Shown here: piece after piece, positions 3,204-36,328 of the stretch | Numbering within the stretch: the first letter of the stretch is position 1 | Layout: the number at the start of each line of letters is the position of its first letter | Assembly: GCA_023137195.1 (NCBI GenBank) | Contig: JAGLPV010000001.1 | Location: 106,242-170,241 of the forward strand | Direction: 5' to 3' | Origin: Candidatus Aenigmatarchaeota archaeon | GTDB taxonomy: Archaea; EX4484-52 | DNA: 64,000 bases | Translations under genes and position numbers: made by a program | Notes under the pieces: model-generated | Seen by the model: only the letters and a program-made list of their open reading frames with translations | What the model was told of the DNA's origin: nothing | Database searches by the model: none

Positions 3204-3878
3204 TTAAAAAAAACCGAATTTTTTAGCGCTAAACAAGCCTTTTTCTTTTATTTCAAAATTTACTTTTTTTCCTTCGGGCATGAACCTGTGCTTTGTTAAT
3301 GTTGCGCACCGGGCATTGTCGCCGGTTTTTTCGAGTTTTATTATTGTTTTTGAAAAGTATTTTGGGATGTCCCTGCCTACGAGTTCCACGTCGCCTGTGT
3401 CGAAGTCGGCATAGACCTGGTTTGTGACAAATACAGGGATTTTCCTGCTTTCTGCGAGCCCGGAGAGGATGTAAAACTGCTTTGTGAGCTTGTAGTTTGC
3501 ATCAGCTATGTTGTCGTGCAGTATTAGTCGGTAAAGTGATACGATGGAGTCTACTATGACTAGACCTATGTTTTCATCTGTGTCTTTTTCTACTAACTGG
3601 GTTGTTTTTAGTTGTTCATCAAAGGTTTTTGGCTTGTATATGTGAACTTTGTTCAAATCCTCTTTTTTATGCATCTGGATAAATCTTTCCGGCGTAAAGC
3701 CGTTTTCCGTATCTACATATATTACTTTTTTACTGTTTCTTATGCAGTTTGTGCATAACTGCATAGCCATGTTTGATTTTCCACTGCCTGCTTCACCATA
3801 ACAATTTGTGATGATTCCTTCTTCCAGTTTGCCGCCTATTACTTTGTCTAATTCTTCAATGTTGAAGGAAATTGCCAT
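3204..3878 (-). CDS. radB: DNA repair and recombination protein RadB (RecA/RadA paralog)
   Basis: Walker A GEAGSGKS, VIYVDTENGFTPERF, Walker B LVIVDS, and C-terminal HRFMPEGKKVNFEIKEKGL are all colinear with euryarchaeal RadB. I place the start at the ATG at 3876-3878 (MAISFNIEELDKVIGGK), which matches RadB N-termini. The ORF-track GTG at 4049 would add 57 unmatched residues. Confidence 0.8.
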   Translation of the reverse strand: MAISFNIEELDKVIGGKLEEGIITNCYGEAGSGKSNMAMQLCTNCIRNSKKVIYVDTENGFTPERFIQMHKKEDLNKVHIYKPKTFDEQLKTTQLVEKDTDENIGLVIVDSIVSLYRLILHDNIADANYKLTKQFYILSGLAESRKIPVFVTNQVYADFDTGDVELVGRDIPKYFSKTIIKLEKTGDNARCATLTKHRFMPEGKKVNFEIKEKGLFSAKKFGFF

Positions 3879-3951
3879 ATTATTATAGTGGTAGTAGAAT
3901 TTTTTAAATATCATCTGCCATGAGCTATTTTTATCCACAAGATGCGGGAAT

Positions 3952-4083
3952 GCGGGAAAATTTCTATAATTTTCCGCATATTGGTCAAAGACCAATAACT
4001 CAAAGATTTTCTGCATATTCAACTTTGTTGAATAACGCACGGAACCCACAGGAAAGTGATTCTTTTTCTTCTACGTTCCTGTG
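3952..4083. other. Cluster of four inverted repeats/hairpins in the kaiC-like/radB spacer
   Basis: GCGGGAAAATT-TCTAT-AATTTTCCGC (3952-3977, 10 bp with one bulged G). TTGGTC-AAA-GACCAA (3981-3995). ATTCAAC-TTT-GTTGAAT (4017-4033). CACAGGAA-N21-TTCCTGTG (4047-4083). Also a direct ATGCGGGA x2 at 3942-3957. Confidence 0.6.
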
Positions 4084-4095
4084 TCTTCCATGCAT

Positions 4096-4869
4096 TCAAG
4101 TCATCTTATACTCCCCTTCAAGCTGCATATCCGGGTAAACAACAAATCCTTTCTTATCCACAATCTTCGCCTCGACAATCCTCCGGTCTATGTCCTCGCC
4201 CCGCATCTTCAAAACCTCAATTCCACGAGCCCTGGTACCATTAGAATACACGATATTATACAAAACAATAATCCCGTCCGATAAAAAACTTACAGCTCCA
4301 CCAGTATCAGATATATTCAGACCGATATGCGCAGGATTGCATGTTTCCCTTATCAAAAAGGAAGTGGTATTGTTCTTCTCTAAATTCCTAAACAACTGCT
4401 CCATGTAGACCCTGAACCTTGCCTCTTCCCCGCTGAAGGCAGAGGCGATTGAACTTAAGGAGTCGATGCATACTATATCCGGGTCAAAGCCTTTTGGAAT
4501 CAACACAGGCTGGATATCAATCAACAGCTCTCTTTTTGCCTCTGACAATAATGCTTCTACGCTCCTTGCTACGTCAAGAGCGTTGAATCTTCTCAACATC
4601 AATGTCCCTTTTCTTTCATAGACTTCCGGGGTCCAGCCGAATGCTTTCATATGACTTCTTAGCCGGTCTTCACGCTCTTCAAAACTCATGTACAATACTT
4701 TCTTTCCTTTTTTGCACAGGTTGTTTGCCAGGTGGAGGCAAAACAATGTTTTGCCTGAGCCGGGTCCTCCTTCTACTAAAATAGAATTTCCTTCAGGAAC
4801 TCCTTCCTGAAATAGTTCGTCAAATCCTCTTATGTCTGTCTTAAACTTGCCTTTGGTTTCTTTTTCCAT
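4096..4869 (-). CDS. KaiC-like single-domain RecA-superfamily ATPase (COG0467/RAD55-type)
   Basis: 257 aa. GFDELFQEGVPEGNSILVEGGPGSGKTLFCLHLA (Walker A), VLYMSFEE, Walker B IVCIDSL, and the C-terminal motif LKMRG. The ATG at 4867-4869 is 5 nt downstream of the giant-gene stop (4875-4877), with AGGTGA immediately upstream. Confidence 0.8.
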   Translation of the reverse strand: MEKETKGKFKTDIRGFDELFQEGVPEGNSILVEGGPGSGKTLFCLHLANNLCKKGKKVLYMSFEEREDRLRSHMKAFGWTPEVYERKGTLMLRRFNALDVARSVEALLSEAKRELLIDIQPVLIPKGFDPDIVCIDSLSSIASAFSGEEARFRVYMEQLFRNLEKNNTTSFLIRETCNPAHIGLNISDTGGAVSFLSDGIIVLYNIVYSNGTRARGIEVLKMRGEDIDRRIVEAKIVDKKGFVVYPDMQLEGEYKMT

Positions 4870-4874
4870 CTAAT

Positions 4875-7800
4875 TCACCTTTTACTTTTCATTGCTAACT
4901 CTTCGTTGAGCAGGGGGATTTGTCGTTTGATGTCTCTCATTATCTCCCCGTATTTTTTTATCCTGACGTGGTATGTGGTCTCGTTTAGTTTTTTTTCCTC
5001 GAAATATTCTCTTTGTGTTTCTGCTACCAGTTTCCTGACTGAACTCCATCTTGTGTTCAGGTTTTTTATTTTTTTTCTTATTATCCAGCATTCTATTCTT
5101 GTGCGTCCTAAGGCTGCGATTGTGGAAAGTAGGACGATTATGAAAATGATTTTGTTCCGGTTCTGCTTCAGGAAAGTGATTATGTTTCTTGAGGTTGCGT
5201 CGTAGAATGCTTTTACTTTTGTCTCTATTGCCTGCATTTCTGAGATTTTTTCGTAGGTCTTGTCTATTTGTTTGAGGCATTCCTCGTATCGCTCTGCCTC
5301 AAACTCGGTTTTGGAGGTGTTGTATACTTCCCAGACAGGGGTCTTGTTTATGTCCTCTGTCTGGATTATTGTGGATTCTAAGGCGTTTAGTTCGTCCAAT
5401 GCCCTGAAAGCTTTTTTCTTTAGGTCGTGGAGTTCATTGATTTTTTCATGGATTAGTGAATAGTCCGGGCTGCCGCCGGACTCTTCCAGGGCTAATTGAG
5501 CTTCGTATATTTGTTTGGCAAGAAAGAGAGTGTCGTTGTATCTTGTTGCAGGGAGGTTCTTGTTCAGGAGTTCATTCATGTCTTCTCCTGCCTGGAGAAG
5601 ATTGTTGTTTGTGTTGAAAGCGTCATCGGAGATACAGAATCCTGCCTGGGGCAGGAGTAAGAGAATAAATAATACGGCTGTTAACCTGGATTTCTTTTCG
5701 GCTCTTCTTGCCTTTAGAGAGGCAATCCTCTCTTCTACTTCCACCAGCCGCTCTGAATAGCTTTTCATCCTGTTTTCGTATATCCTTGTTTCCAGCTTGC
5801 CTGAGTTTAGGTAGAGTCTCTGGGACTCTTTTATTATGTTCAGGATCTTTTCTCTTTCTTCTGTTAGCCTGTCGTCTTCTTTCCTGAAGAATTTGAAGAG
5901 GTTTGCCTGAATAGTTTCGTATTTTATGCTTTCCTGGATTGCTTTGCTCATGCGCTTTTCGTACTGCATGAGGGTTTGCATGTATTCCCTCATGCTTAGT
6001 TTGCCTTCTATGAAGCATTCTCTTTGTGCTTCTTTGATTAGGCTTAGCAGGACGGATTCTTCTTTTTTCAGGTTTTTTAGTTTCCTGGTTATGAGGTCTA
6101 GTTTCAGTGCGAGGAAGCTGAAGAAGGATAATATTGTTATTAATATTGTTGCAATTATTATTTTGCCCCAGTTGTTTTTTGCAAATGCTACTATGTTGAA
6201 TATGCCGACTGTTTCTAATGCGTAGGTTACTTTTGCATCTTCTGCCCTCTTTAGGGCAGAGACAAAGTCGCCCCTGTCTAATGCTGCCTGGCTTAGGAGC
6301 AGTAGTCTTTTTGTCTTTGAGACGTCAATTCCGTCGTGTTCTGCCTGTGTTATTTTTTGGCGTATTTCATTTAAGAGTTCCAGGCAGTCAAATGCCTGCT
6401 GTTTGGTTTGCTGCATCTGTGCGTGTAGGTCTCTTGCTATCTCGTAGTCTTTTGTTTTTAAGGTGTTGTTTGCTGTGTTTAGGGATTCTCTGAGGTCTTT
6501 TGTGTTCAGGTTCTTCTGCTCTATCTCCCTGATGATTGCTTCTATCTTTTCAATGTAGTCTATTGCTTCCTGCCTGGAGATTTCCAGGATTATTAGCTTG
6601 ATTGTCCTTGTCTCTTTCATGTCTGTGGTAGGAGTGGTGTTGATTATTCCTTCAATTGTGAATATTAGCTTGTATTCTCCTCTTGTGAAATATTCCGGGG
6701 CTTCCAGGAATATTGTAAAGTTTTGGCTGTTGTTTTGGGGGATTAGGTCTGTGCGGGTCGGGTGGATTCTTAAGTATTTTGATAAAAATCCCTTGATGGA
6801 GATTGTGGTGTTTATTAATGCTCCTTCGAATGGGTTTTCTACTTCCAGGTTGAATTGCTGCTGGCGTCCTCTTAATAGTTCGTAGGTTGCATCGGTTTGG
6901 AATAGTTTTTGTCTTTGCTTTTCTGTTGCTGTTATTATTACGGAGAAGGGTGAGCCACCTCCACTACTGCTTCCGCCGGAACTACTGCCTGTGTAATGCT
7001 CTTCTATTATTGTTGTCGGTGCTCCGTCAACAGGGATGCAGATTTCCTTTATGTTCTGGGTCTGGAGGCAGTTGGAGCAGTTGGTGTAGAGATAGAAGCA
7101 ATAGCTTCCTGTCGCTACACCTGAGCCTACATATATTGTGAAAACCTGGGTCTTGTAATTTATGCCTGATGTGCAGCTGAAAAGTGATTCTGTGTTTTCT
7201 TCCGGGGTTGCTGAAACTCCTGATGGGAGGTTCATGAGGAAGATGGATAGATTTACTGCGTCCTCGTTTCCTATGTTTGTTATGCCGGTTGTTATCTGCT
7301 GGGAGTTTCCGGCATCGGTTGTTGCTATGCTTGATATTCCTGTGAATTCAAAGTATGGACCGGCAGGGATTATCTTGATGGAGGGGGTCAGGGTTGTGCT
7401 GTAGACGTAGTCTTCGTTGTTCTCTGTGCAGCTTAGGCAGCTGCAGTCTACAGGGATGGATATGCTTACGCTGTAGTCTGGTAAGTCTCCCGGGATTAGG
7501 GGGGTTATGTTTATCTGTCTTGTTTTTGTTGTTGGAGGGGATTCTAATATTATGTTTGATGTGTTGTAGTTAAAGAGCATGTCCTTGGATGAGGTAATGT
7601 ATGTTGAATTCGGGAGGGCGCAGGTGTAGTTGAAGTCGCCGGTGTTGTTGAATGTTATTGTTCCCAGGGTTGCGTTCTCGTTGATTATTGCGGTTTCCGG
7701 GGTGTTGGTTATGGAGATGTTTATTGTGTAGTCGTTCCATATTTGTAGGATATTATTTTGTGATTGGATTGTGTTGTTGTAGGTGTCGTTGGTCCATATG

Positions 7801-10800
7801 TAGTAGGTGTAGTTTCCCTTGGACTGGTTGGTTAGGGTTGTGTTGTACAGGGTTGTGCCCTGCATTGGTGTTGATGTCCAGTTGGTTGTGTTGTATGTGT
7901 CGTTTCTTTGGTAGTATAGTAAGACTGTGTGGATTGCTAAGTTGTCTGTTATGTTTGTGTGGATTGTTATGTTCATGTTTGGGTCTATGCCTGCTATAGT
8001 TAGCGGGGTGGTGGTTATTGAGTTTATTGTCGGTTTTCTGGTGTCGTTGGAGGTTATGTTTATTATTGCCTGGTTGGCGTTATGTAGCCAGTCGTAGGCT
8101 GTCAGGTTGAAGAGTATTAGTCCGGCGGGGAGGTTGGTGTAGTTGAATTGTGTGGTGTTGCCTGTGAAGGTTATGTTTGTTGTTTGGGTTTGTAGTACTG
8201 AGAATGTTGTGTTTAGGGTTGCGTTTGATAAGCCGTTGATTGACCAGTTTAGGGAATTATCTGTCCATTGTAATGTGCAGGAGATGTTGTCTGCCTGTGA
8301 TGCGGATATGGTTGAGTTTGTTGCATTTAGTATTATGGTTGTATTGGATGTGTTGTTGTGAGTGATGTTGCAGGTTGCGTTTATTAGTTGAGGCGGGGTT
8401 GAGTCTGTTGTCAGTGTTCTTGTTGTTGATGTGTTTGTGTCGTAGGTGTCTGTCACTGAGACATTCCAGTGGTGGATTCCGTCGGGGAGTAGGAGTGAGT
8501 GGGTTGTGTTTGTTGTTAGAGTGGTGTTGTGGATTGTTAGGTTGAATGTCTTGTTGTCGTTGTCGGGGTCGCTGCTGGTCCAGGAGAATTGTATTGTTTC
8601 GTTTGAGGAGTTTGTGTTGTTTGGTGGAGAGGTTAATGTTATTGTCGGGATTTGGTTTGGGACTGTTGTTTGTATTGTTGTGTTTGTGCAGTTGGAGCCT
8701 CCCGAGATGTTGCCGTCGCAGATGTTAATAGTTATGTTTATGTTCTGGTTCGGGGTCAGCCAGCCCCCGCTGATGTTGGCTGAGCAATAGGCTTGGGTGT
8801 TTGTTCCGTATGGGATGTTTAAGGTTCCTGTTAGGTTTGACTGGTTGAGTTGGTTGCTGTAGTGGACTGTGCAGTTTATTAGGTCTGTGTCTGTGTCGTG
8901 GTCTGTGGCTATGGTTGAGGTCATTATTCTATGTTCTGGGTTGTTTTGGATTTGCGGTGTGGTTAGAGATGGAGGGTAGTTGATGATTGTTGTGTTTTGC
9001 GTGCAGACCTGATCGGAGACCAGGTTGTACTGGTCTTTTATGTTTAGGCAGAAACTCCAGTTCTGGGCTTTTGTTGTGTACTGGTATTCTAAAGAGGCGT
9101 TGGTTAGGTTTGTTTGGGAGAGGATTCTGGTGTCGTTTAGGATGTCGTTTAAGTACCATTTTATTGTTGAGGAGATTATGTCGTCTCCTTCGGGTTCGTT
9201 GTAATTCCACAGGGCGGTTAGGTCCAGTGCTGTTGTTGTTGAGGGTAAGGTGGTGTTTGTTATGTTTGGTTTTTCATTTGGTATGGTTGGGTAAATAGTT
9301 CCGGTGTTGGTTGTTGCACCCATGTTGTCTTCGAAGACAAAATATATTGATACAGAACTGCCTACGGAGTAGTGGGATGTGTTGATTTCTTTTGAGCAGT
9401 TTACTGTTTGGTTGGATTGTGTTAATAGTTCTGTGGTGTTGCTGCCGTAGTGGATTTGGCAGCTGGTTATCTGGCCGTCAGGGTCTGTTGCGTTGGCGCT
9501 TGCTGTGAAGGCGTGTCTGTTTGGAGTGTTTTGGTATAGTGGTCCGTTTGTTGTTGGGTTTTGGTTGCCGCTTACGAAAGAGCCGCTTGAGGTTGTGGTT
9601 TGGTAGGGGTCTGCTGTTGTTAAAGTCCAGTCGTAGGAGGTGTTGGCATATACTGTGAAGTTTACTTTCCACGCGGTTGATTTTGTTGCGTTCTGGTTGG
9701 TCATTATGTCGATTTGCTGGGTGTAGGTTAGGGTTGTGTTTAGGATTGTTGTGTTTGCTGCTGTGGTATAGGTTATGTTTGTTGTGTTGGTTAGGTAGGA
9801 CTGGGGGGTGGGTATGGTTGTAGGGATGGTTTGGTTTGTGAATTGTAAGGTAGTTAGGGGGTTGTTGTTTATTTTTACTGTTGTTGATTGGTTTGAGTAG
9901 TAGAGGATTTTGGTATTGTTTAAGGTTATTGTGCCGTTTTCTAATGTGCAGGTTATGTTGTTGGTGGATTGTAAAGGGTGTGTGTAGTTGTAGGTTGTGT
10001 TCTGGGGGGTTGGGATTAGGTCTATCTGGTTGTTGTTTAGGTATATTCTTAGGTTTGTTGCGTTTACTGCATTTGCGAAGGTTATGTTTATTGTTGCGTT
10101 GTTTAGCGGGTTCGGGGTGGTTAGTTGATGGGTTGCGTTTGTTGTGTTGGTTATGGTGTGTTGGGTTGAGTTTATTGTCTGTGTTTTTTGGTTTAGGTAG
10201 TAGATTGTTAGGTTTGCCTGTCCTGTGGATTTTGGGTATAATGTTTGTAGTTCGTGTGTTTTGGTGGTGTTGTCTGTGTTTATAGTTGTTGTGTTTTGGG
10301 TTGTTTTTGTTCCGTTTTCTATGTATACTGTGAAATTTGCGTATATTATGTTGTCGTTTTCGTTGTCTGTTATGTTGGCAGTTAGGTTTATGTTGTCTGT
10401 TGGGGTTGCGGGTTCTGTGCTGACTTCAACTATGGTTGGGTTTGAGTTCATCCTGAACCATAGGTTTGATTCATTGAAGGCGGAGCATATCCACGGGTCG
10501 CAGGCTTTTAGCTGGAAGGTGTAGTTTTTGCCGTCTTCTAAGGCCACGCGGTGGCCTAAGGTCATTTGTCCTTCGTTGTTGAAGTTGGTTGTTGTTATGT
10601 TGTTGTCGTATTGGTATGATGCGCCCTCTTCTTTTACCCATGCTTCTATTCTTAGGGTGTCGTTCTCGTCGTCTGATGGGTTGGTCCAGTTTATTTTTGG
10701 ATTTGGAGTGATTACATGTAGTGTGTCGTTGAAAGCGTCGTTTATTATTAGGTTTAGGTTGGATGGTGTGGATGGTATCTTGTTTGGGATTTGCTGGCTT

Positions 10801-13800: not shown

Positions 13801-16800
13801 ACCAAAGAATTGTTCCAGTCAATTAAAGTTGTTGTGTCGCTTGAATCAGTTATTGTTGTATTTACATAACTATAATCCCTGGTAACTATAGCCTCGTTAC
13901 TATCTGTCTGATTAACGAACTCTATATGAGGAGGAGTTGTGTCTATGTTAATAGTTCTTGTTGCTGAATTGATATTGCTTGCTGAATCCTGGGTGTATGT
14001 GGTGTATGTGTATGTTCCGTCGTTTAGGTTTGTGAAGTTGCGGTATAATCTGTGGAGTCCTGCGTTGTAGGAGGCGTTTATTTCTTCTGGTGATAAAATC
14101 CGGTTCCATATTTTTATTTCATCAATTGTACCATTGAAATAATATACCCATTTACCGACTTCTAAATCAGCACTTATATGATTATGTGTTATATTCGAGT
14201 ACCATTGATTGTTACAAGCATCATCCTCTCCATCAATATAAAGACATAATCTCTCATTTGGTTTGTCAACAACACCAACAACATGGTGCCATTCACCAAA
14301 ACTTATTAATCTTGACCTGTATGAATATCCAAAAGTACTATTGTCCGCGACGGTTAAATGAATATCATTTGCGGACCAACCTCTTGTAACAAGACCATAT
14401 TGCGTTGAACCCCAACTACCTCCTGTTCTTGCTACAATTCCCGAACTTTCAACATTACTTTCCCTGTAAATCCATGCTTCTATTGTAAGTTCATTTACTA
14501 TGTCTAAATTATCGCCCATGTTGACATAATCATTGTTTCCGTCAAACATTAGTCCTTTTCCGAATCTTGATGAAGATGTCCAGCCGGAACTTCCGTTGTT
14601 AATTCCAGAACTCATGTTTGTTAAAGTTCCGTTGTTGTTATATGTAGAACTGTCTTCAGTAGTTAGTCCGGTTCCTTCATTAAATCTCCACCAGCCGACC
14701 AATGAATTATTCCAGTCGATAAAGGCAGTGATATTATTTGTGTCTGTTGTTGTTGTGTTAATATAAGTATAATTCCTGCTAACATAAGCATTGTCTGTGT
14801 CTGTTGGATTAACGTATGTGATAGTAGGATTTATTGTATCTATAGTTACTGTTCTGGTGGCTGAAATAATATTCCCTACTGAATCCTGCGAATATGTAGT
14901 GTAAGTATAAGTTCCTTCTAATAAATTTGTAAAGTTGTGATAGAGTCGGTATAATCCTGTGTTGTAGGATGCATTGATTTCTTCCGGACCCAATACGCGA
15001 TTGTGTATTTTTACTTCATCTATTGTCCCGTTGAAAAAAGAAGTAATTCCGCTTACATCGTGATATCCGGCACCCATTATTATTTTACCATTGGTGGCTT
15101 GAGGATTTGGCTGATTGTCGTCCTGGACAACCAAACTCCCATTCAAATAAAACATTACGGTTTCACCATTTCTTATTATAGTAATATAGTACCATTCATC
15201 TGTGTTAATGCCTCTGCTACCAACAAGCCCCTCGTTGCTACAACCGGATTCGGATACAGAAACGGATGCACCGTCAGTATATATTCTGGGGTTATAGAAA
15301 CAATCTCCGGCATTGCCTCTGCGAAAAACTTCATCACTGCCGGTTGTGTTATCTACTTTAAACCAGAAGGAAATTGTATATATTGTATCTTCAGAACTAA
15401 CAGAACTACAATCAACATAATCATTTGCTCCGTCAAATATGATTGCGTTGCTAAACTTGCCTACTGTTGTCCTGCCGCTTGTGCCGTTGTCTATTCCTGT
15501 ATTCATATCAGTCATCGTCCCGTTGTTGCCATTGCCTGAAAAGTCTTCTACATTAGTGCCATTATTTTCATTCATTCTCCACCATGCAACCAATGAGTTG
15601 TTCCAGTCTATGAAGGATGTTATATTGTTTGTATCTGTTATTGTTGCATTAATGTATGTGTAATTTCTGCTGATGTAAATATTGTCTGCATCGGTTGGGG
15701 CAGTATATTCTATTGACGGGTTTGTTGTATCTATTGTTATTGTTCTTGTCTGGGTCTGGTTTATATTTCCTGCCATGTCCTGTGTGTATGCTGTGTATGT
15801 GTAGATGCCATCGTTTAGATTTGTGAAATTATGGTATAGTCTGTATGACCCTGTGTTGAAATCTGCTCTTACATCTACTGAGTTCAAAGCCATTTTCCAT
15901 ATCTTGATTTCATCTATTGTGCCGTTGAAATAATCCATTGATGCGCTCCACCCGAGAATGAAACTGTCGTATGTCAGGTTTTCTTTTGGAGTTATCCACT
16001 GCCAGCCGGCTTCATTTCCATTTACATAAAAATACATCTTTGTTGTGTTGTATACTGCCGCGAGATGAACAAATTCATCACTTGTCTGCGGTTTTGTTAT
16101 AATCCTGTCTATTGATGGAGTTATATATCTCAAGTGGTATTCGGAGTTTCTCAGGGCAAGATATGTATAAACCGGGCTGGTTGCTTCGCGGCTGGAATAT
16201 ATTGATTTTTGTTCACTAAATACATCTGATGTCCATAAAGGGTGTTTTATCCACAGAGATACTGTGTATCCTGTGGTCACAAAATTTGTAAATATATCTG
16301 ACCTGTTGAGTTTATCATTCCCGTCAAAACTTCTGGCTCCACCGAACTTTCCTGCGTTGGTGTATGTTGAACCGCTGTTGTCCGGGTTGTTGCTATATGT
16401 AGAATGGTCGGATAAATCAGAGCTGTTGTCGAACCGCCACCAGATGATTAAGGAATTGTTCCAGTCTATGAATGAGGATATATTATTTGTGTCTGTTGTT
16501 GTTGCGTTTATGTATGTGTAGTCTCTGCTTACGTAAGCGTTGTTTGTGTCGGTTGGATTGATGTAGGAGATAGTTGGATTTATTGTGTCTATTGTTATTG
16601 TTCTTGTTTGGGTTTGGTTTATGTTTCCGGCTGAGTCCTGGGCGTAAGTGGTGTATGTGTGGGTTCCGTCGTTTAGGTCTGTGAAGTTGTGGTAAAGGCG
16701 GTTGAGTCCTGCGTTGTAGGAGGCGTTGATTTCTTCCTCAGATAATGCCCTGTTGTAGATACGGACTTCGTCTATTGTACCATTCCACAGTCTATAATCA

Positions 16801-19800
16801 GATAAATAATATATTCCTCTCCCGATACGCATTGCTTCGCCCACATGATTATACATTGATGTTGTAGCTATAACAACATCGCCCTTATTACCATCAACAT
16901 ACACTATAATATGTGTTCCGTTCCACACACCAACTAAGTGATACCAAGTGTTTAATGATGGAGAGAGTTGAGTATATTTTGCTATACGCCAATTGCTATC
17001 TCCATCTTTTGTTTGTAGTTTAAACCAATCATTACCTACATCATATCTTAATTCAATGCTTCTGCCTCCATCTGCTTTACAAACAACACACTGGTCATCA
17101 CCTTTACTTATCATATATGCCCATGCTTCTATTGTAAAACTATTAAATGTGCTTAATTCTAAGTTGTCTATTGGCAAACCAACATAATCATTCACGCCGT
17201 CAAACTGCAAGGCGTTGCCGTATTTTCCGGATGATGTCCGACCGCTTGTTCCATTATTTATGCCGGTATTCATGCCTGCTAATGTGCCAATATTGCTATG
17301 TCCTGAAAAGTCTTCTGCTGTTGTGTCGCTTTCTTCATTCATTCTCCACCAGCCGACTAAGGAGTTGTTCCAGTCTATGAAAGCAGTTATGTTGTTTGTG
17401 TCGCTTGTTGTTGTGTTTATATAAGTATAATTCCTGCTGACGTAAACATTGTCTGTATCTGTCGGGTCGACGTATTTTATTGATGGATTTGTTGTGTCGA
17501 TTGTCAGTGTTCTTGTTGTTGAGTTTATATTTCCTGCTGAGTCTTGTGCGTATGCTGTGTAAGAATAAGTTCCATCTGTAAGAGAGGTGAAGTTGTGGTA
17601 GAGTCTGTATAAACCTGCATTGTAGGATGCGTTGATTTCTTCAGGGCTTAGGGCGCGGTTGTAGATTCGGAATTCATCTATTGAGCCATTGAATGGGACT
17701 GCTGATGTTGGTCTTGCACCAATATCCCAATTTAAAGAATAATTTATTAGACTCCAATCTCCCGTTGTTCCGCTTCCATTGACATAAGTATCATCATATA
17801 TAAAATAGACATCTGGATTCCTTAAAACCACACCTACAAAATGCCATTCATTTGCTGGTATGTTCGCTGCATAACTAGACATCATGCCTCCTTTCAGCCA
17901 TAAATCATTTGTATTCTCTACTTGGAATTCGATACCTCTGGAAGGCGTCGATATAAAGTTAGATATGATAGATCCCTCTGACGATGTTTTGAACGTTTCA
18001 GGTGTTTTTATCCAAGCCGTAATTGTTAGATTTGAACCATAAAAATTGGCTGTATTTAATGGTAAGTTCATATAATCATTATCGCCGTCAAACTCTAAAG
18101 CCGAGCCGAATTTACCTGATTCGTAAACAGGGCAATTGGTGCAGGTTCCGTTGTTGCCGTAACTGCTGTAATCTTTGAAGAATGTTGTATTTTCTCCGGG
18201 TTCCTGGTTGAATCTCCACCAGCCTACTAAGGAATTGTTCCAGTCCATGAAGGCAGTTATGTTGTTTGTGTCTGAGGTTGTTGTGTTTATGTAAGCGTAG
18301 TTGTCTGAAATGTATTTGTTGTTGCTTGGAGTAGGTGAGGTAAAACTTAGTTGCGGTGGTGTGGTGTCGAGAGTGCCGTTGCTTACGAATATGTCCCAAT
18401 TTTGGCTTGCTGTTGGTCCGCCTTCCTGATTTGGCAGACTGTCGAAATAGTCTTTTTTTAGGTTGTATTGGTTTGATATTTCTGTTGCATTTAATGCCCT
18501 GTTCCAGATTTTTACCTCGTCGATTGTGCCGTTGAAATATCTATTATCTGATGAATACCATCTTCCAATTCTAACTATATCAACTAAATTAACTAATGAA
18601 CCCGTCGCACTTTGCGATTTCTCCAAAATACCATTTACATAAAGAATATGTTTCGAGCCGTTATAAGTTGTTACTAAATGATACCACTCCTTAACTAAAG
18701 GCGTTGTTGGATTGTTGTCCATTTTATTTGCTTGAGATGTATTTCTTACAGAACATGCAAAACAATCATTTCCAATATCATACCATAACATAAACTTTCC
18801 GCTACTACCCGAATCGGTAATTACCACCATATCTTGACTTTTTTTATCTAAATTTACCCATGCACTGAACGTAATATCCTCTGTTACATCCAAACTCGCA
18901 TCATTCCCACAATCAACATAATCATCAACACCGTCAAAGTCCAGAGCATTCCCAAACTTGCTCGAAATTGTCCAGTCTGGCGGGTAGCCGTACAAAGTTC
19001 CTGTATTGCCCTTACCACTGCTGTCTGTTGCTAGGTCTGATGTTCCTCTTTCATCAAATTTCGTGTGCAAGACCAGTCCTTCACTGCTTATATTGGTTTC
19101 GAGTCCTGCCAAGCCGCGTTGGTAGTCCCAAGATATTTCGGTTGCGTTTAGGGTTCGGTTGTAAAGCATAATGTCATCAGCCATTCCTTTTGTGTATCTA
19201 TTATAATGATTCATTATAACAATCGGGTCAGTATTAACGCCATTATTAGTATCATTTATGCTTATTGCTGTTGCATCAGAAGAACCATCTGTATATAGAT
19301 ATAATTTATCCTCTGTCGCATTTTTAACAACAGCTATATGATGCCAGGTATCATCACAAACTACAGAAGTAGATTCTATGCTGTTGGATACTGTTGAATT
19401 ATAAGAAAGACCAAATGAATGATGTCCATTATCTCTAACATTCCAAAGGTAAGAAGGGTATAATATGCTTGTATCGTGATAACCTTTTGTAATCAATCCA
19501 TCGTTTGTATTAGTATCTGGTATTTTAATCCACATCATGAAAGTAAACGAAATACCTGTAGGAAATTCCAAATTACTATTATCTATTATACTAACATAAT
19601 CATTCGTTCCGTCAAAGTTCAAAGCACCGCCAATCTGTCCGGTAGTCCATTTGGTTTGTCCGCCTGTAGATGGGTTTAAAGTTCCGTCATTGTTATTCAA
19701 AGAATAGTTTGCACGGTCTTTTGCTGTTGCGCCTTGATTTTCGTTGAAATTTAAGCATAATACCTGTCCTGTGATGTTGCCGGATTCACAGGTGTCAACC

Positions 19801-21896
19801 AAGACAGAATAGTCGCTTGTGTCTTTTAATGTGTAATTGTCGGTGTTTCCTGTATAATAATCATACCATATGTTCTGGATGTTGCCTGGATTCCAGCCTA
19901 AGTATTCTGTTAGGTTGAAACTCAATAAATCGTATTGGCTCATGGTATATGTGTTGCTTATTCTGATTCTGGTCAGGTTCTGCTCGTTCAAATATTTGTT
20001 TGTTATGCTGATGGTTTCATGTCCGAACCAGTTTGTATCTGTAGTGTTGAAGGTTATGTTTTTGTATTTGGTTAATCCGTTCGAGTAGTGGTCTGTTATT
20101 TCTGTAGGAGTTAATACCCTGTTCCAGACTGAAACGGAGTCTATTGTGCCGTTGAACTCTCTACCGCCGCTTGGGTCTGCACCAATAGCGATACCTGTTC
20201 CTGTTGTTGCAGGTTGTGTCGTCCCTGTTGCAAGAACTGTGTCTACGTACAGTGCGACAGCAGAAGTATTCCATGTCATTACTACATTATGCCATGACGT
20301 AGTATCTGTAAACGTTTCACTTTTTCTAGTATAAGAACCATCATATACTCCTGCTCTTATTGAGTCATATGCTACTTGAAGTAACATTCTATCATATGTC
20401 TTCTTTGTTGAAGAAAAAAGTGTTCCTTCATATCCTGAGGTTCTATCTGCTTTTAACCATACAGAAACAGTCCATGACGTTGTGTTTGATAATTCGCTTG
20501 ATAAACTTGATGAATTAGTTCCGCAATCAACATAATCCCCGCTACCATCAAAATAAAGACTATGACCAGTATTATTGGGTGTATCAGAACTCCATTTTGT
20601 ATTTATGAGCGTCCCGTTATTACTCTTACCTGACTCATCATACAAAGTCGTGCCTGTGGCATAGTCCATACTATATGAAGCTACCAAACCATTGTTGTTT
20701 CTCACTCCTTTTGTGGTTACATAAGTAGGTGTGAATTGTATCTCGGTATCGACCTCCGGCACATTCACGATTAAACTATTATTTGTGTGGCTGACTGTAT
20801 CGTAAGTTATTGCCGAGCCGCTGATGTCTGTGTAGTTTGTGACGTAATTGCTTGCTGTTGTATTGTATAATGCTGAGACTTCATCTGAACTTAAAGCACG
20901 GTTGTAAATTCTAACATCGTCTATTGTGCCGTTGAAAGAATATACACTTTCGCCAAAATAGATATTATTAGAATATGTTATGGTATTGCCAACCCATGAA
21001 TCATCAATATTTTTTGAAACCGAACCAGTAATATTTATGCCATTCATAAATAGGTTCATTTGTTGGTTAGGTATATCAATCCTTAATACATAATGATACC
21101 AACGGTCGTCTGTATAACTAAGTGTAGTTTCATATTGTTTTGTGCCAGACACACGTACTTGTGTAGTTATCGTACTTTCTCCTGTATTAAAGTATGCTCT
21201 TATTTGGTGGTCTGTAGAACCAGTGTAGGTGTTCTCAAAAATTTCATGTCTTCCTGTATCGTTAGTCTTAAACCAGAAAGATATAGTTATTTCCGATTCG
21301 CCAGACTGTTTCCAATTCGTATCAACATAATCATCCAAACCATCAAAATAGACTCCATTGCTCAAATTTCCGTTAGTAGTCCACCCGGAACAATTCCCTG
21401 TGCAGTTATCAGTTCCAATATTCATATTAGTCAAAGCGCCATGATTATTATTTCCTGAATAATCCCATGCTTTGGCATCAGTTGTCTTGTTCCCTTTATC
21501 AAAACTCCACCAACCGACAAGTCCGGAAGTCAAATCATAAGAGGAATTTGTAGCACCTAGGAACAGCTTCCCTTCTGACACATCCAGGGAAGCCGTATAC
21601 ATCGTATCATTAGAAGTGGAATTCTGCACAACTTTTAAATCCGTGCTTAATGCAGCATCAATCCATGTTGTGGAAACAGATAAAGAAGCAGAGAATAATA
21701 CAAATAAAATGAATAATGAAAAGAAGAAAAATGCGTTCAATAAAAATTTTTGCAATTGATTTTTTAAAAAGGATGTTGCAACAAAATTTTTTAATGTTGT
21801 GTCTAAACTTATACGCAAAATGCAGTTTACACACAATGTTGAAAACCTGTTTTTCGAGTAAAACGGGCTGTTTTTGAGTGCTTTTTCAAGTGTCAT
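4875..21896 (-). CDS. Giant secreted/membrane-anchored surface protein (5,673 aa): 11 LamG-type lectin domains, DUF2341-like module, Ig-like modules, N/T-rich region, coiled-coil C-terminus with 3 TM segments
   Basis: A single stop-free 17-kb frame in AT-rich DNA. N-terminal hydrophobic segment FFFFSLFILFVLFSASLSVS. Eleven FDGxxDY(V) LamG cores with the ending FNGTIDEVRIYNRALS (first at ~21321-21350, last at ~12310-12340). WNEDYKYRKKLTITN ... YYIYYNN DUF2341-like module at ~12400-12760. Modules with the motif DPDG..SC..Y. Thr/Asn/Gln/Pro-rich stretch at ~7400-10500. TM segments at ~6085-6200, ~5625-5690 and ~5100-5155. The exact start is uncertain: a TTG near 21740, just before the hydrophobic segment, is an alternative. 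Confidence 0.9.
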   Translation of the reverse strand: MTLEKALKNSPFYSKNRFSTLCVNCILRISLDTTLKNFVATSFLKNQLQKFLLNAFFFFSLFILFVLFSASLSVSTTWIDAALSTDLKVVQNSTSNDTMYTASLDVSEGKLFLGATNSSYDLTSGLVGWWSFDKGNKTTDAKAWDYSGNNNHGALTNMNIGTDNCTGNCSGWTTNGNLSNGVYFDGLDDYVDTNWKQSGESEITISFWFKTNDTGRHEIFENTYTGSTDHQIRAYFNTGESTITTQVRVSGTKQYETTLSYTDDRWYHYVLRIDIPNQQMNLFMNGINITGSVSKNIDDSWVGNTITYSNNIYFGESVYSFNGTIDDVRIYNRALSSDEVSALYNTTASNYVTNYTDISGSAITYDTVSHTNNSLIVNVPEVDTEIQFTPTYVTTKGVRNNNGLVASYSMDYATGTTLYDESGKSNNGTLINTKWSSDTPNNTGHSLYFDGSGDYVDCGTNSSSLSSELSNTTSWTVSVWLKADRTSGYEGTLFSSTKKTYDRMLLQVAYDSIRAGVYDGSYTRKSETFTDTTSWHNVVMTWNTSAVALYVDTVLATGTTQPATTGTGIAIGADPSGGREFNGTIDSVSVWNRVLTPTEITDHYSNGLTKYKNITFNTTDTNWFGHETISITNKYLNEQNLTRIRISNTYTMSQYDLLSFNLTEYLGWNPGNIQNIWYDYYTGNTDNYTLKDTSDYSVLVDTCESGNITGQVLCLNFNENQGATAKDRANYSLNNNDGTLNPSTGGQTKWTTGQIGGALNFDGTNDYVSIIDNSNLEFPTGISFTFMMWIKIPDTNTNDGLITKGYHDTSILYPSYLWNVRDNGHHSFGLSYNSTVSNSIESTSVVCDDTWHHIAVVKNATEDKLYLYTDGSSDATAISINDTNNGVNTDPIVIMNHYNRYTKGMADDIMLYNRTLNATEISWDYQRGLAGLETNISSEGLVLHTKFDERGTSDLATDSSGKGNTGTLYGYPPDWTISSKFGNALDFDGVDDYVDCGNDASLDVTEDITFSAWVNLDKKSQDMVVITDSGSSGKFMLWYDIGNDCFACSVRNTSQANKMDNNPTTPLVKEWYHLVTTYNGSKHILYVNGILEKSQSATGSLVNLVDIVRIGRWYSSDNRYFNGTIDEVKIWNRALNATEISNQYNLKKDYFDSLPNQEGGPTASQNWDIFVSNGTLDTTPPQLSFTSPTPSNNKYISDNYAYINTTTSDTNNITAFMDWNNSLVGWWRFNQEPGENTTFFKDYSSYGNNGTCTNCPVYESGKFGSALEFDGDNDYMNLPLNTANFYGSNLTITAWIKTPETFKTSSEGSIISNFISTPSRGIEFQVENTNDLWLKGGMMSSYAANIPANEWHFVGVVLRNPDVYFIYDDTYVNGSGTTGDWSLINYSLNWDIGARPTSAVPFNGSIDEFRIYNRALSPEEINASYNAGLYRLYHNFTSLTDGTYSYTAYAQDSAGNINSTTRTLTIDTTNPSIKYVDPTDTDNVYVSRNYTYINTTTSDTNNITAFIDWNNSLVGWWRMNEESDTTAEDFSGHSNIGTLAGMNTGINNGTSGRTSSGKYGNALQFDGVNDYVGLPIDNLELSTFNSFTIEAWAYMISKGDDQCVVCKADGGRSIELRYDVGNDWFKLQTKDGDSNWRIAKYTQLSPSLNTWYHLVGVWNGTHIIVYVDGNKGDVVIATTSMYNHVGEAMRIGRGIYYLSDYRLWNGTIDEVRIYNRALSEEEINASYNAGLNRLYHNFTDLNDGTHTYTTYAQDSAGNINQTQTRTITIDTINPTISYINPTDTNNAYVSRDYTYINATTTDTNNISSFIDWNNSLIIWWRFDNSSDLSDHSTYSNNPDNSGSTYTNAGKFGGARSFDGNDKLNRSDIFTNFVTTGYTVSLWIKHPLWTSDVFSEQKSIYSSREATSPVYTYLALRNSEYHLRYITPSIDRIITKPQTSDEFVHLAAVYNTTKMYFYVNGNEAGWQWITPKENLTYDSFILGWSASMDYFNGTIDEIKIWKMALNSVDVRADFNTGSYRLYHNFTNLNDGIYTYTAYTQDMAGNINQTQTRTITIDTTNPSIEYTAPTDADNIYISRNYTYINATITDTNNITSFIDWNNSLVAWWRMNENNGTNVEDFSGNGNNGTMTDMNTGIDNGTSGRTTVGKFSNAIIFDGANDYVDCSSVSSEDTIYTISFWFKVDNTTGSDEVFRRGNAGDCFYNPRIYTDGASVSVSESGCSNEGLVGSRGINTDEWYYITIIRNGETVMFYLNGSLVVQDDNQPNPQATNGKIIMGAGYHDVSGITSFFNGTIDEVKIHNRVLGPEEINASYNTGLYRLYHNFTNLLEGTYTYTTYSQDSVGNIISATRTVTIDTINPTITYVNPTDTDNAYVSRNYTYINTTTTDTNNITAFIDWNNSLVGWWRFNEGTGLTTEDSSTYNNNGTLTNMSSGINNGSSGWTSSSRFGKGLMFDGNNDYVNMGDNLDIVNELTIEAWIYRESNVESSGIVARTGGSWGSTQYGLVTRGWSANDIHLTVADNSTFGYSYRSRLISFGEWHHVVGVVDKPNERLCLYIDGEDDACNNQWYSNITHNHISADLEVGKWVYYFNGTIDEIKIWNRILSPEEINASYNAGLHRLYRNFTNLNDGTYTYTTYTQDSASNINSATRTINIDTTPPHIEFVNQTDSNEAIVTRDYSYVNTTITDSSDTTTLIDWNNSLVAWLRMDEDLGTIVQDFSSHGNNATTANMNTGIDNCTGDCSGLTSNSKFGNALAFDGTDDSMNTANFLDLSNDFTYSFWYKKHEAIPQYPASGDIVSCVLVFNSYSSGHMRACYRDRYCNNGIRFRSASSGNHAWCTGSLNVNQFHHITYVKTMTYQRLYVDGILRASTSGAPADISASQGFDVYGAFNGTIDDVKLYNRAISIEEINATYDAGLHRLYHNFTGLSDGEYTYTAYAQDKAGNINQTQTRTLTIDATPPSYSWKDPTPANNTYRTQNYTELNLTIDEYHLDTLKFNWHNGTTWINSTLHDNSLVLALNFNNNSAIGENSTKAVDISKYANDGTIVTGSNWWNEDYKYRKKLTITNNNASALSIGEPINITINTASLVSAGKLLTNGTDLRIVHGVSEINRTNTTSFNSSETIVWFNAEAQINSGNSDSNYYIYYNNANAGTPQAGGITTTQTYNLTDVLGSISRIRAKYIDGKFGTGLKFDGVDDYVDCGTEDSLDLQEQTILLWIKPNNLDLSGDSKLILNKVGSYYIEYGWSTTGHIFWRTYGLSDDTLNVNNVLSIDEWIHLAFTYNGSSKCAYKNSDEVICEDTTGTINENDGTLYLGRWSTNIKNFNGTIDEVKIYNHSLTADEIKMHYQSELKKYTSSSWGYYNNLSVSNHTHKFNLWANDTMNWSSDTERTVHTNTILITDLNFEDITGHKFNISANATHTGGSGKFTNCYVHCSDCQWSNKYGILNNTSTPTKCTLLINESDIILGTTANFSISFTDTYTKERSSNTQEYYLPNYAPAIYSFTVTNCSNGHCFTLIGNATDPDGASDISSCRIYYYNPTDPSAGWHYFTGTLACDSSSCNCTSTISDSTGYLDNDIKNNIETYIEFKDTSDTTNITTHINNTLPNHAVTFSSTGANTINNKHAFNLTASANDPDSDTFSCKAYLTDTTSGSSCSVNMIPSSIISSGTSSLEVNTTTCSNFNVGDWIDIIVEADDTFDKSNSSQISQQIPNKIPSTPSNLNLIINDAFNDTLHVITPNPKINWTNPSDDENDTLRIEAWVKEEGASYQYDNNITTTNFNNEGQMTLGHRVALEDGKNYTFQLKACDPWICSAFNESNLWFRMNSNPTIVEVSTEPATPTDNINLTANITDNENDNIIYANFTVYIENGTKTTQNTTTINTDNTTKTHELQTLYPKSTGQANLTIYYLNQKTQTINSTQHTITNTTNATHQLTTPNPLNNATINITFANAVNATNLRIYLNNNQIDLIPTPQNTTYNYTHPLQSTNNITCTLENGTITLNNTKILYYSNQSTTVKINNNPLTTLQFTNQTIPTTIPTPQSYLTNTTNITYTTAANTTILNTTLTYTQQIDIMTNQNATKSTAWKVNFTVYANTSYDWTLTTADPYQTTTSSGSFVSGNQNPTTNGPLYQNTPNRHAFTASANATDPDGQITSCQIHYGSNTTELLTQSNQTVNCSKEINTSHYSVGSSVSIYFVFEDNMGATTNTGTIYPTIPNEKPNITNTTLPSTTTALDLTALWNYNEPEGDDIISSTIKWYLNDILNDTRILSQTNLTNASLEYQYTTKAQNWSFCLNIKDQYNLVSDQVCTQNTTIINYPPSLTTPQIQNNPEHRIMTSTIATDHDTDTDLINCTVHYSNQLNQSNLTGTLNIPYGTNTQAYCSANISGGWLTPNQNINITINICDGNISGGSNCTNTTIQTTVPNQIPTITLTSPPNNTNSSNETIQFSWTSSDPDNDNKTFNLTIHNTTLTTNTTHSLLLPDGIHHWNVSVTDTYDTNTSTTRTLTTDSTPPQLINATCNITHNNTSNTTIILNATNSTISASQADNISCTLQWTDNSLNWSINGLSNATLNTTFSVLQTQTTNITFTGNTTQFNYTNLPAGLILFNLTAYDWLHNANQAIINITSNDTRKPTINSITTTPLTIAGIDPNMNITIHTNITDNLAIHTVLLYYQRNDTYNTTNWTSTPMQGTTLYNTTLTNQSKGNYTYYIWTNDTYNNTIQSQNNILQIWNDYTINISITNTPETAIINENATLGTITFNNTGDFNYTCALPNSTYITSSKDMLFNYNTSNIILESPPTTKTRQINITPLIPGDLPDYSVSISIPVDCSCLSCTENNEDYVYSTTLTPSIKIIPAGPYFEFTGISSIATTDAGNSQQITTGITNIGNEDAVNLSIFLMNLPSGVSATPEENTESLFSCTSGINYKTQVFTIYVGSGVATGSYCFYLYTNCSNCLQTQNIKEICIPVDGAPTTIIEEHYTGSSSGGSSSGGGSPFSVIITATEKQRQKLFQTDATYELLRGRQQQFNLEVENPFEGALINTTISIKGFLSKYLRIHPTRTDLIPQNNSQNFTIFLEAPEYFTRGEYKLIFTIEGIINTTPTTDMKETRTIKLIILEISRQEAIDYIEKIEAIIREIEQKNLNTKDLRESLNTANNTLKTKDYEIARDLHAQMQQTKQQAFDCLELLNEIRQKITQAEHDGIDVSKTKRLLLLSQAALDRGDFVSALKRAEDAKVTYALETVGIFNIVAFAKNNWGKIIIATILITILSFFSFLALKLDLITRKLKNLKKEESVLLSLIKEAQRECFIEGKLSMREYMQTLMQYEKRMSKAIQESIKYETIQANLFKFFRKEDDRLTEEREKILNIIKESQRLYLNSGKLETRIYENRMKSYSERLVEVEERIASLKARRAEKKSRLTAVLFILLLLPQAGFCISDDAFNTNNNLLQAGEDMNELLNKNLPATRYNDTLFLAKQIYEAQLALEESGGSPDYSLIHEKINELHDLKKKAFRALDELNALESTIIQTEDINKTPVWEVYNTSKTEFEAERYEECLKQIDKTYEKISEMQAIETKVKAFYDATSRNIITFLKQNRNKIIFIIVLLSTIAALGRTRIECWIIRKKIKNLNTRWSSVRKLVAETQREYFEEKKLNETTYHVRIKKYGEIMRDIKRQIPLLNEELAMKSKR
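13020..18370 (-). repeat. Intragenic tandem array: six ~850-910-bp units (LamG + beta-sandwich modules) inside the giant gene
   Basis: The coding motif (F/L)IDWNNSL(V/I)(G/A/I)W(W/L)R recurs at ~13800, 14700, 15600, 16450, 17360 and 18230. Each unit ends ...EEINASYNAGLxRLYHNFTxLxDGTYTYT(A/T)YxQDSAGNINxTxRTxTIDTxxP. The antisense shadow ORFs at 14533, 15439, 16264 and 17215 share ELFQSMK..ILFVSVVV. Confidence 0.85.
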
Positions 21897-36254: not shown

Positions 36255-36328
36255 TGGTGGGATTACGAGGACTTGAACCCCGACTAATAGGTCTGGAGCC
36301 TATTGTGCTACCATTACACCATAACCCC
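36255..36328 (-). tRNA. tRNA-Trp (anticodon CCA), 74 nt with encoded 3' CCA
   Basis: The reverse complement folds by hand: acceptor GGGGUUA/UAAUCCC, D arm GUGU-AAUGGUA-GCAC, anticodon arm AUAGG-CUCCAGA-CCUAU, T arm CGGGG-UUCAAGU-CCUCG, then discriminator A and CCA. Confidence 0.9.

Follow-up and report, generated by a model that had tools for sequence, protein, structure and literature searches.

A KaiC-like ATPase gene linked to the conserved tail of a giant lectin-domain surface protein in a DPANN archaeon

How archaea of the DPANN group recognise a host, attach to it and respond to the contact is an open question: almost none of these organisms is genetically tractable, and most of their candidate "adhesins" are lineage-specific. 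The stretch of DNA considered here (64,000 nucleotides (nt) of contig JAGLPV010000001.1, positions 106,242 to 170,241, from the Candidatus Aenigmatarchaeota archaeon assembly GCA_023137195.1; hereafter the window) brings this question down to a single locus, in which a 17-kb gene for a giant surface protein with LamG lectin-type domains is directly followed by the gene for a KaiC-like ATPase, called K below. What does such an ATPase do behind an adhesin-like gene, and with which part of the giant protein does it belong? The conserved partner of the ATPase is the C-terminal tail family of the giant protein, made up of two related modules, A and B, and not the LamG ectodomain. On balance, and with some reserve, we read the locus as one operon of a three-part cell-envelope module conserved across DPANN archaea, in which K would dock on the motifs of the tail as an ATP switch. 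The genes and their junction are as follows.

4875..21896, minus strand: giant surface-protein gene, an A-tailed giant fused with the normally separate module-B protein (open reading frame list, fused homologues, independent contigs)
4096..4869, minus strand: K, single-domain KaiC-like RecA-superfamily ATPase of 257 residues (Pfam PF06745, invariant motifs, AlphaFold2 model)
4875..4880, minus strand: AGGTGA, Shine-Dalgarno-like motif that includes the giant-gene TGA, 5 nt upstream of the K start (read from the sequence)

The giant open reading frame (ORF; 4875..21896, minus strand) encodes 5,673 residues from an ATG start according to the ORF list and its translation. The single frame of 5,673 codons claimed in the original prediction, which was made from the sequence alone, therefore stands, although in most relatives it corresponds to two separate genes, which are fused here. 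Its TGA (4877-4875) is followed by a 5-nt spacer and the ATG of K at 4869 (junction sequence: AAAAGGTGAATTAGATGG). That the TGA lies 5 nt from the ATG of a single-domain KaiC-type ATPase, that the giant gene ends in an AGGTGA Shine-Dalgarno and that the two genes form an operon-like pair had all been proposed, and are borne out. Shine-Dalgarno-like motifs precede 8 of the 42 window genes, most of which look leaderless; the motif before K is informative because such motifs are rare in the window, and its position ahead of a distal cistron supports an operon. In relatives, the gap between the upstream gene and K ranges from -38 to +155 nt.

The last ~570 residues of the giant protein consist of the two paralogous modules, A and B, as seen by BLAST and with a hidden Markov model (HMM) of the tail that was built from free-standing module-B homologues. 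Hydropathy places transmembrane (TM) segments at residues 5246-5264, 5405-5423 and 5583-5601, and the predicted topology, which satisfies the positive-inside rule, puts the stretches encoded by nt 5685-6104 and 4878-5093 in the cytoplasm. A membrane-spanning tail with two cytoplasmic helical segments had been anticipated at nearly these positions (5690-6085 and 4878-5100), and the tail is helical where it was modelled, that is in module B. Its parts are listed below.

5691..6578, minus strand: module A, residues 5107-5402, with a helical juxtamembrane ectodomain, TM1 and a cytoplasmic loop (tail HMM, E = 3e-26 and 2e-6)
6105-6161, minus strand: TM1 of module A (hydropathy peak)
5685-6104, minus strand: cytoplasmic loop of module A with two motif copies, residues 5266-5330 and 5336-5402 (tail HMM)
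4878..5690, minus strand: module B, residues 5403-5673 (tail HMM, E = 1e-96)
5628-5684, minus strand: TM2 of module B, a former signal peptide (free-standing homologues have N-terminal signal peptides)
5151-5627, minus strand: helical-bundle ectodomain of module B (AlphaFold2 model)
5094-5150, minus strand: TM3 of module B (hydropathy)
4878-5093, minus strand: cytoplasmic helical hairpin of module B with the third motif copy, the most conserved region (AlphaFold2 model)

Both modules share a cytoplasmic helical motif of ~45 residues (L-I-x-E-x-Q-R-x-Y-F-x-x-G-K-L-x4-Y-x6-Y), present twice in A and once in B. Members of the family have a signal peptide or a preceding ectodomain, a helical ectodomain of ~160 residues, one TM helix and the cytoplasmic motif, and all of these are found in the window tail. 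In most relatives B is a separate protein of ~300 residues with its own signal peptide, whereas in the window it is fused to the giant protein; free-standing homologues range from 270 to 440 residues and begin with signal peptides of the ordinary kind, of which a few are lipobox-like. The same A+B fusion occurs at three other loci (L002, L010 and L014), and fused giants are also among the matches of a global profile search. In the window, the former signal peptide of B (…KKSRLTAVLFILLLLPQAGFC/ISDD…) stands directly after the cytoplasmic loop of A; it would re-cross the membrane, and both modules would therefore keep their native topology. A signal peptidase cut after TM2, regenerating two polypeptides, is possible.

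The AlphaFold2 model of B (28 homologues; predicted local distance difference test (pLDDT) 91.6) is wholly helical; in it, five helices build the ectodomain, a single long one crosses the membrane and a helical hairpin lies in the cytoplasm. A Foldseek comparison with the PDB gave nothing significant (best E = 0.08, TM-score <= 0.25), and A and B have no match in Pfam (E <= 1), NCBIfam or PADLOC. The named homologues of A and B are all "hypothetical" except for one with the JGI label "TPR repeat", and a second profile search with the B alignment returned no further named homologues. A SHOCT-like identity was considered for the cytoplasmic motif and is unsupported by Pfam at E <= 1 and by NCBIfam. 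The B profile matches 1,466 representative proteins (clusters at 50% identity) at E <= 1e-3, and 384 at E <= 1e-30. Conservation within B is highest in the cytoplasmic tail (0.58, versus 0.43 in the ectodomain and 0.39 in the TM helix), as it should be if this tail is a binding site for a conserved protein of the cytoplasm; median identity to the window copy is 32% for B and 64% for K. Most of the C-terminal extensions read in long B homologues are lysine/glutamate-rich and of low complexity. Those of P0209, P0213 and P0232 (250-400 residues, rich in lysine, glutamate and arginine) resemble charged single helices, and P0209 and P0213 end in a small "GFSxEQIKxKLxERGWP" domain.

Is the pairing of tail and ATPase peculiar to this genome? 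A word-indexed search found 1,432 homologues of K at E <= 1e-10, and 80 genomic loci from DPANN genomes were fetched around K homologues. The K proteins of these loci are 57-78% identical to that of the window and belong to metagenome-assembled genomes (MAGs) of Aenigmarchaeota, Woesearchaeota, Pacearchaeota, Micrarchaeota, Iainarchaeota, Nanohaloarchaeota and Undinarchaeota. The original prediction had proposed a gene-neighbourhood analysis of this kind, with a lack of linkage in relatives counting against it; in the event, B is present at 64 of the 80 loci, at 59 of them within 1 kb of K, at 41 within 150 nt and at 53 on the strand of K. A giant protein that ends in module A was found at 38 loci (584-2970 residues, some cut by contig ends). 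Where K is well flanked (at least 5 kb on both sides, 31 loci), B occurs in 28 cases and both A and B in 22. For the reciprocal test, an independent metagenome collection was searched with B; among 21 B genes with at least 2 kb on both sides, 17 have K nearby, 16 of these within 1.2 kb. The tightest linkage, and a reciprocal one, is that of K with B.

The commonest gene order is giant(A)-B-K, and the orders A-K-B, K-A-B and a divergent K> <B <A are found as well. An all-versus-all comparison of ~1,000 neighbouring ORFs yielded three recurrent families, namely K (80 loci), the tail family (64) and a protein with two TM helices (20), all others occurring at 7 loci or fewer. The permuted gene order, together with these lone recurrent families, indicates that the proximity is selected and not inherited synteny. 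The protein with two TM helices (~150-170 residues, conserved at the N-terminus in a "FLSMDLIERMIRVEQRV" region) is encoded between B and K at 20 Woesearchaeota and Pacearchaeota loci, for example L019, L030 (9445-9933), L035, L038-L040 and L052; the window holds no convincing homologue of it (best E = 4e-4, at 47504-48082).

The ectodomains of the A-tailed giants are far less uniform. LamG is present in 14 of the 38, and six further giants compared with Pfam include three with LamG and two without a recognisable domain; DUF2341, NEW3, F5/8 type C, Sad1/UNC and Big_13 domains occur as well. What had been predicted as a pair of giant LamG gene and kaiC-like gene is thus a linkage conserved far beyond this genome, but its conserved element on the side of the giant is the tail. 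Two A-tailed ORFs stand in tandem at locus L013, an extra tail fragment lies beside the A/B/K cluster of L068, and one MAG (ERP119705_co12_128) holds two B-K pairs at separate loci (L027 and L069). Such additional tail-bearing ORFs and B-K pairs suggest several client surface proteins per ATPase system.

K matches the Pfam KaiC family (PF06745) as one domain over residues 10-247 (146 bits, cutoff 26.6; E = 1.5e-42). Walker A (GGPGSGKT), the glutamate pair of FEE and Walker B are intact and align with the motifs of KaiC. Across 27 homologues G34-G35-P36-G37-x-G39-K40 and E64/E65 are invariant and T41 and D136 invariant or nearly so; the R223 region is invariant among homologues as well, and the conserved S194 aligns with S431 of KaiC. 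By these residues K looks active as an ATPase. Its AlphaFold2 model (pLDDT 83, predicted template modelling score 0.83) has a RecA-like fold, and the nearest structures are PH0284 and PH0186 of Pyrococcus horikoshii and the CI domain of KaiC (Foldseek E about 1e-18 to 2.6e-19, TM-score 0.73-0.85). These share Walker A, the EE pair and Walker B with K at 23-29% identity; SSO2452 is also among the PDB relatives, and KaiC CI/CII are among the closest sequences and structures. Residues 95-131 form a family-specific, almost invariant block that aligns poorly with KaiC. Within it, the invariant stretch E114-D131 overlaps a loop of low confidence in the monomer model (residues 114-119, pLDDT < 50), as expected of an interface element, which makes the stretch a candidate interface.

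Many K homologues (L009, L018, L049, L058, L060, L063, L064 and others) carry lysine-rich N-terminal extensions of 40-280 residues, in which no domain is recognisable. Several of the extensions, which the window K does not have, start with an amphipathic-looking KKGFFxKLFGSK motif that may hint at membrane proximity or targeting. At equivalog level, K belongs neither to ArlH or RadB nor to any of the archaeal KaiC subgroups in NCBIfam. An identity as circadian KaiC was rejected: KaiC is a CI-CII tandem of ~500 residues whereas K is a single domain of 257, and K scores 111 bits on the equivalog model against a cutoff of 408. Genes for the partners KaiB and KaiA are not recurrent across the 80 K neighbourhoods.

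How might these parts work together? The proposed module would consist of a very large and variable surface protein whose C-terminus is module A (here with 11 LamG domains and a spacer); of module B, a small paralogue of the A tail that is normally a separate secreted type-I membrane protein and here appears fused in frame, its former signal peptide serving as a re-entry TM helix; and of K, the highly conserved single-domain KaiC-like ATPase. A and B would put the same ~45-residue helical motif into the cytoplasm, and K would dock at the membrane on the three motifs of A+B, probably as a hexameric ring like that of PH0284, whose entry 2dr3 holds six chains. By ATP binding, hydrolysis or autophosphorylation, K would then couple the state of the surface protein, such as contact with a host or substrate, to the cytoplasm, and signals could run either outside-in or inside-out. 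We infer the docking of K from gene context and conservation, and with it a physical complex of A/B and K, the pairing of A with B, the formation of a K ring and the signalling role. A receptor or switch role is favoured because finished DPANN genomes have no or almost no two-component systems (PMC5847659) and because a role as signalling hubs of archaea has been suggested for KaiC-like ATPases (Makarova, Galperin and Koonin 2017, as cited in PMC5847659 and PMC6393860). Like the proposed hubs, K is a KaiC-superfamily ATPase that stands alone, its gene next to those of putative input proteins, and the archaea that have it largely lack two-component systems. One specific form of this role, an ATPase-coupled adhesion receptor in which giant, rapidly diversifying lectin-type proteins and B, their small paralogous co-receptor, relay host contact by way of single TM helices to a K ring docked on the cytoplasmic motifs, or in which K sets adhesion from inside, may be put forward tentatively.

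Several observations weigh against a docking switch of this kind. Tail genes are lacking at 12 of the 80 K loci, at some of them despite flanks of 10 kb, and K is lacking at 4 of the 21 well-flanked B loci. The K genes at loci without tail genes are interspersed through the K tree and therefore form no distinct K paralogue. Some lineages have B-K pairs without an adjacent giant gene, and the giant may thus be a client and not an obligate partner; by the same token B-K appears to be the core, and the A-tailed giants look like clients or co-subunits. No output component was found downstream of K. A K-B fusion of the Rosetta-stone type was not found either, as the ten long B homologues (530-914 residues) are without a KaiC domain, and the B ectodomain has no recognisable ligand-binding fold (best Foldseek E 0.08). 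In Nanoarchaeum equitans, the 256-residue KaiC-domain protein NEQ174 (arCOG01171) is the third most abundant protein, after a histone and the surface-layer (S-layer) protein NEQ300, and the 336-residue "S-layer-associated" protein NEQ236 is also abundant (PMC3149612). These two may be orthologues of K and B, respectively; if NEQ174 is the orthologue of K, its abundance fits a structural role better than a switch.

An assembly or structural role is indeed the main rival to a signalling switch. B would be a stalk or anchor, and K an ATP-driven sub-membrane scaffold, chaperone, lattice or quality-control factor for giant glycoproteins. This would be served by the same gene linkage; B is anchor-like in its helical stalk, TM helix and short tail, the giant partners differ in their ectodomains and have the tail in common, and long charged spacers occur in some B and K homologues. 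The KaiC-domain protein of N. equitans, moreover, is about as abundant as envelope proteins (PMC3149612), a point that counts only if NEQ174 is orthologous to K. We nevertheless regard this role as doubtful, since K shows nothing of a TM protein or a translocase, A and B form no channel, the giant protein carries an N-terminal signal for its own export, and the S-layer protein of Micrarchaeota is of another type, the A-tailed giants not being S-layer proteins in general (bioRxiv 10.1101/2021.04.28.441871). An identification of the giant A protein as the DPANN S-layer protein was not adopted, for the A ectodomains are too variable and the Micrarchaeota S-layer protein differs (same source). It is also conceivable, if rather unlikely, that no complex exists and that K, B and the giant gene are merely co-expressed, for instance in an envelope-stress or host-contact regulon, while K acts on other targets. 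Linkage by itself cannot prove contact, it has exceptions, and there are no domain fusions; but conservation in B peaks in the short cytoplasmic tail, the motif is present three times in A+B, and genes that stay neighbours in whatever order across DPANN lineages typically encode interacting subunits. It is very improbable that K is a generic regulator of the archaellum or of type IV pili in the manner of ArlH, or that it belongs to a mobile or defence island. KaiC-family ATPases are often linked to archaeal loci for type IV pili and the archaellum (PMC4858521), and pilus clusters with kaiC genes have been reported from Nanohaloarchaeota (PMC9563170). Near K, however, no type IV pilus ATPase, TadC or pilin family recurs among the 80 loci, and the ArlH and FlaH models give 28-38 bits against cutoffs of 194-215. 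In PADLOC, K has P-loop-level matches only (<= 30 bits) and A and B have none, and 57-78% identity over the 80 K loci is unlike defence genes.

Two further doubts concern the DNA on either side of the junction. We give hardly any credence to the idea of an assembly artefact in the 17-kb ORF or at its junction with K. The giant gene is repetitive, and a genuine assembly breakpoint lies merely 2 nt beyond the K stop codon; the internal repeats (period 858-909 nt), however, are only 61-81% identical at the DNA level, too diverged to collapse, which makes repeat collapse or chimerism unlikely, and a single frame is open across 17 kb. Ten public contigs carry the exact K protein. Positions 6360-4094 of the window recur with 100% identity on one contig of an NCBI MAG, and positions 10504-4094 (6.4 kb) with 99.5-99.9% identity on three ENA contigs, so that the tail/K junction is reproduced in contigs of four independent assemblies at 99.5-100% identity. 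An annotated partial protein of a Candidatus Aenigmarchaeota MAG is 100% identical to part of the tail, the A+B fusion recurs at the three loci named above, and the window genes for TrmB, an ATP-dependent DNA ligase, RadB and DHH/DHHA1 fit an archaeal origin. The breakpoint, of assembly or strain, is at ~4094, 2 nt past the K stop codon: one contig with an identical K diverges there into a thermosome gene and a PolB-exo fragment, and three others end exactly at 4094. This bears on the suggestion that K, as an aRadC-like recombination paralogue of the RadA/RadB type, has its partner in the downstream RadB and stands behind the giant gene only incidentally. RadB (3204-4049; TIGR02237 196 bits, cutoff 172) does lie 46 nt downstream on the same strand, K is in the RecA superfamily and SSO2452 is among its PDB relatives. 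Yet RadB follows K at 2 of the 80 loci, neighbour clustering gave no RadB family, K scores 20.5 bits on TIGR02237 (cutoff 172), and in the same population an identical K precedes a thermosome gene, with three contigs breaking right after K. The partnership is largely refuted, and its probability is very small. Just behind K lies one more feature.

4047..4083, no strand: perfect inverted repeat with 8-bp stems, CACAGGAA-N21-TTCCTGTG (pattern search, 1 match versus 0 expected)

A similar hairpin follows K in contig L081 (2250-2400 region) despite different flanks, and the element may be the 3' end or terminator of the operon, or a recombination hotspot.

Among known systems, the K module would work most like ArlH at the archaellum motor, a comparison that is mechanistically reasonable as an analogy only. 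ArlH (FlaH) is, like K, a single-domain KaiC-like RecA ATPase, and it sits at the membrane in a surface machine; it works there by way of a partner that combines a TM helix with a helical segment on the cytoplasmic side. The parallel drawn in the original prediction holds to this extent and not as homology, for K is no orthologue of ArlH: it scores 38 bits on the equivalog NF052589 (cutoff 215) and 28-35 bits on FlaH models (cutoffs 194-215). No arlI, arlJ or pilin family is recurrent near K at the 80 loci, and none is found in the scanned ORFs of the window. A and B, which are unrelated to ArlX, are proteins of type I: their ectodomains are large and their cytoplasmic motifs lie at the C-terminus. 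The SlaB-type S-layer stalk of Sulfolobales resembles B in being a small, secreted, elongated helical stalk with a C-terminal TM anchor, encoded beside a larger surface-protein gene (PMC11329633). Between B and SlaB-like stalks, however, Pfam, NCBIfam and the PDB comparison (Foldseek E 0.08, TM-score <= 0.25) show no similarity of sequence or fold. SlaB has beta-sandwich domains and is not known to have a conserved motif in the cytoplasm or to work with an ATPase. B differs, too, in that the large protein itself contains a paralogue of it.

As a LamG protein, the giant of the window is a member of the class of large putative DPANN adhesins with LamG or concanavalin-like domains that have been discussed for Undinarchaeota and Nanohaloarchaeota (PMC7414124, PMC9563170). 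Those were reported as stand-alone proteins, and a conserved tail with an ATPase partner is not in their descriptions; many A-tailed giants, conversely, are without LamG. Family cls.004306 (NEQ255), a DPANN-specific "secreted protein next to S-layer-like proteins" found in 43 of 67 genomes (PMC6393860), may be module B to judge from its description; the paper mentions no KaiC-like partner. The original prediction knew of no earlier account of a functional link between such a giant protein and a RecA-superfamily ATPase, and the literature searched indeed contains no description of the trio of K, B and giant protein, an earlier mention in Makarova et al. 2017 (mBio) being possible.

The ectodomain of the giant protein, which would face host or substrate, has the following features.

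21690..21746, minus strand: N-terminal hydrophobic segment, residues 51-69 (Kyte-Doolittle peak 2.46, lysine-rich N-flank)
11880..21443, minus strand: lectin-type array of 11 LamG (Laminin_G_3) domains with Big_13-like Ig modules between them, repeat unit ~290-300 residues (Pfam, LamG HMM)
20871-21443, 20091-20654, 19128-19712 and 18471-19040, minus strand: LamG domains 1-4 (LamG HMM)
17628-18188, 16722-17291, 15864-16424 and 14970-15524, minus strand: LamG domains 5-8 (LamG HMM)
14073-14633, 13176-13736 and 11880-12422, minus strand: LamG domains 9-11 (LamG HMM)
6927..11699, minus strand: Thr/Asn-rich region, residues ~3400-4990, with many N-x-S/T sequons and no Pfam match (composition)

The N-terminal hydrophobic leader of the original prediction is recovered at residues 51-69, which by its hydropathy and flank is a signal peptide or signal anchor. 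Its 11 LamG cores are found as well: Pfam Laminin_G_3 (PF13385, LamG/ConA-like lectin) matches above threshold with 9 + 2 domains (632 and 102 bits; E = 1.7e-192 and 4.5e-29), and a purpose-built LamG HMM, with which the boundaries were placed, also gives 11 domains (nt 11880-21443). The expected Ig-like modules appear as Big_13 in Pfam. The HMM comparison thus matched Laminin_G_3 and KaiC as foreseen but not DUF2341 (PF10102): the supposed DUF2341-like module has no Pfam match in the giant protein even at E <= 1, and its trace is a weak BLAST match to a neighbouring DUF2341 protein (26272-28308; E = 1e-5 over 48 residues).

In residues 3700-4990, threonine makes up 19% and asparagine 14%, with up to 26 N-x-S/T sequons per 200 residues, and the Thr/Asn-rich region is probably a heavily N-glycosylated spacer. 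The giant protein has 244 such sequons in all, 240 of them in residues 1-5240, which are nearly all predicted ectodomain, and none in the predicted cytoplasmic loop. Positions 6000-12000 of the window, inside the giant gene, show a GC skew up to +0.54, an AT skew down to -0.47 and a GC content of 42-45% versus 30-37% across most of the flanking window; the skew anomaly arises because residues ~3400-4990 are Thr/Asn-rich (ACN/AAY codons) and dense in sequons.

Elsewhere in the window, 4.4 kb upstream of the giant gene, a gene on the minus strand (26272-28308) specifies a 678-residue protein that combines DUF2341 with five RCC1 repeats, and the related contig L081 (6451-6907) has a paralogous 5' region 80-85% identical to this gene. 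Between it and the giant gene, the ORFs at 23111-25168 (685 residues) and 25226-26209 (327 residues) have no Pfam match. At 42743-45422 (minus strand), a 462-residue NPCBM_assoc/NEW3 protein adjoins a MacB/FtsX-type ABC permease; NEW3 also occurs in the A-tailed giant of L001. An 817-residue ORF without a Pfam match at E <= 1e-5 (33699-36152, plus strand) lies beside the only tRNA gene of the window (tRNA-Trp, 36255-36328).

For the biology of the DPANN archaea, the locus means that a conserved cytoplasmic ATPase and a conserved tail motif are common to otherwise unrelated giant proteins of Aenigmarchaeota, Woesearchaeota, Pacearchaeota, Micrarchaeota, Iainarchaeota and Nanohaloarchaeota. Two unannotated protein families are defined, and with them a KaiC-like ATPase module that includes a new, unannotated membrane-receptor or anchor family. 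The tail HMM can serve as a marker for the relevant surface proteins in any DPANN genome, and binding of K to the ~45-residue motif is a concrete biochemical hypothesis. Cultivated systems, with N. equitans NEQ174 as an example, offer a target for proteomics and cryo-electron tomography. The idea of KaiC-like signalling hubs would be extended to a membrane-receptor setting, and, should the tentative reading as an adhesion receptor be true, the module would represent a class of ATPase-coupled receptors not recognised before and would hold a central place in the episymbiotic lifestyle.

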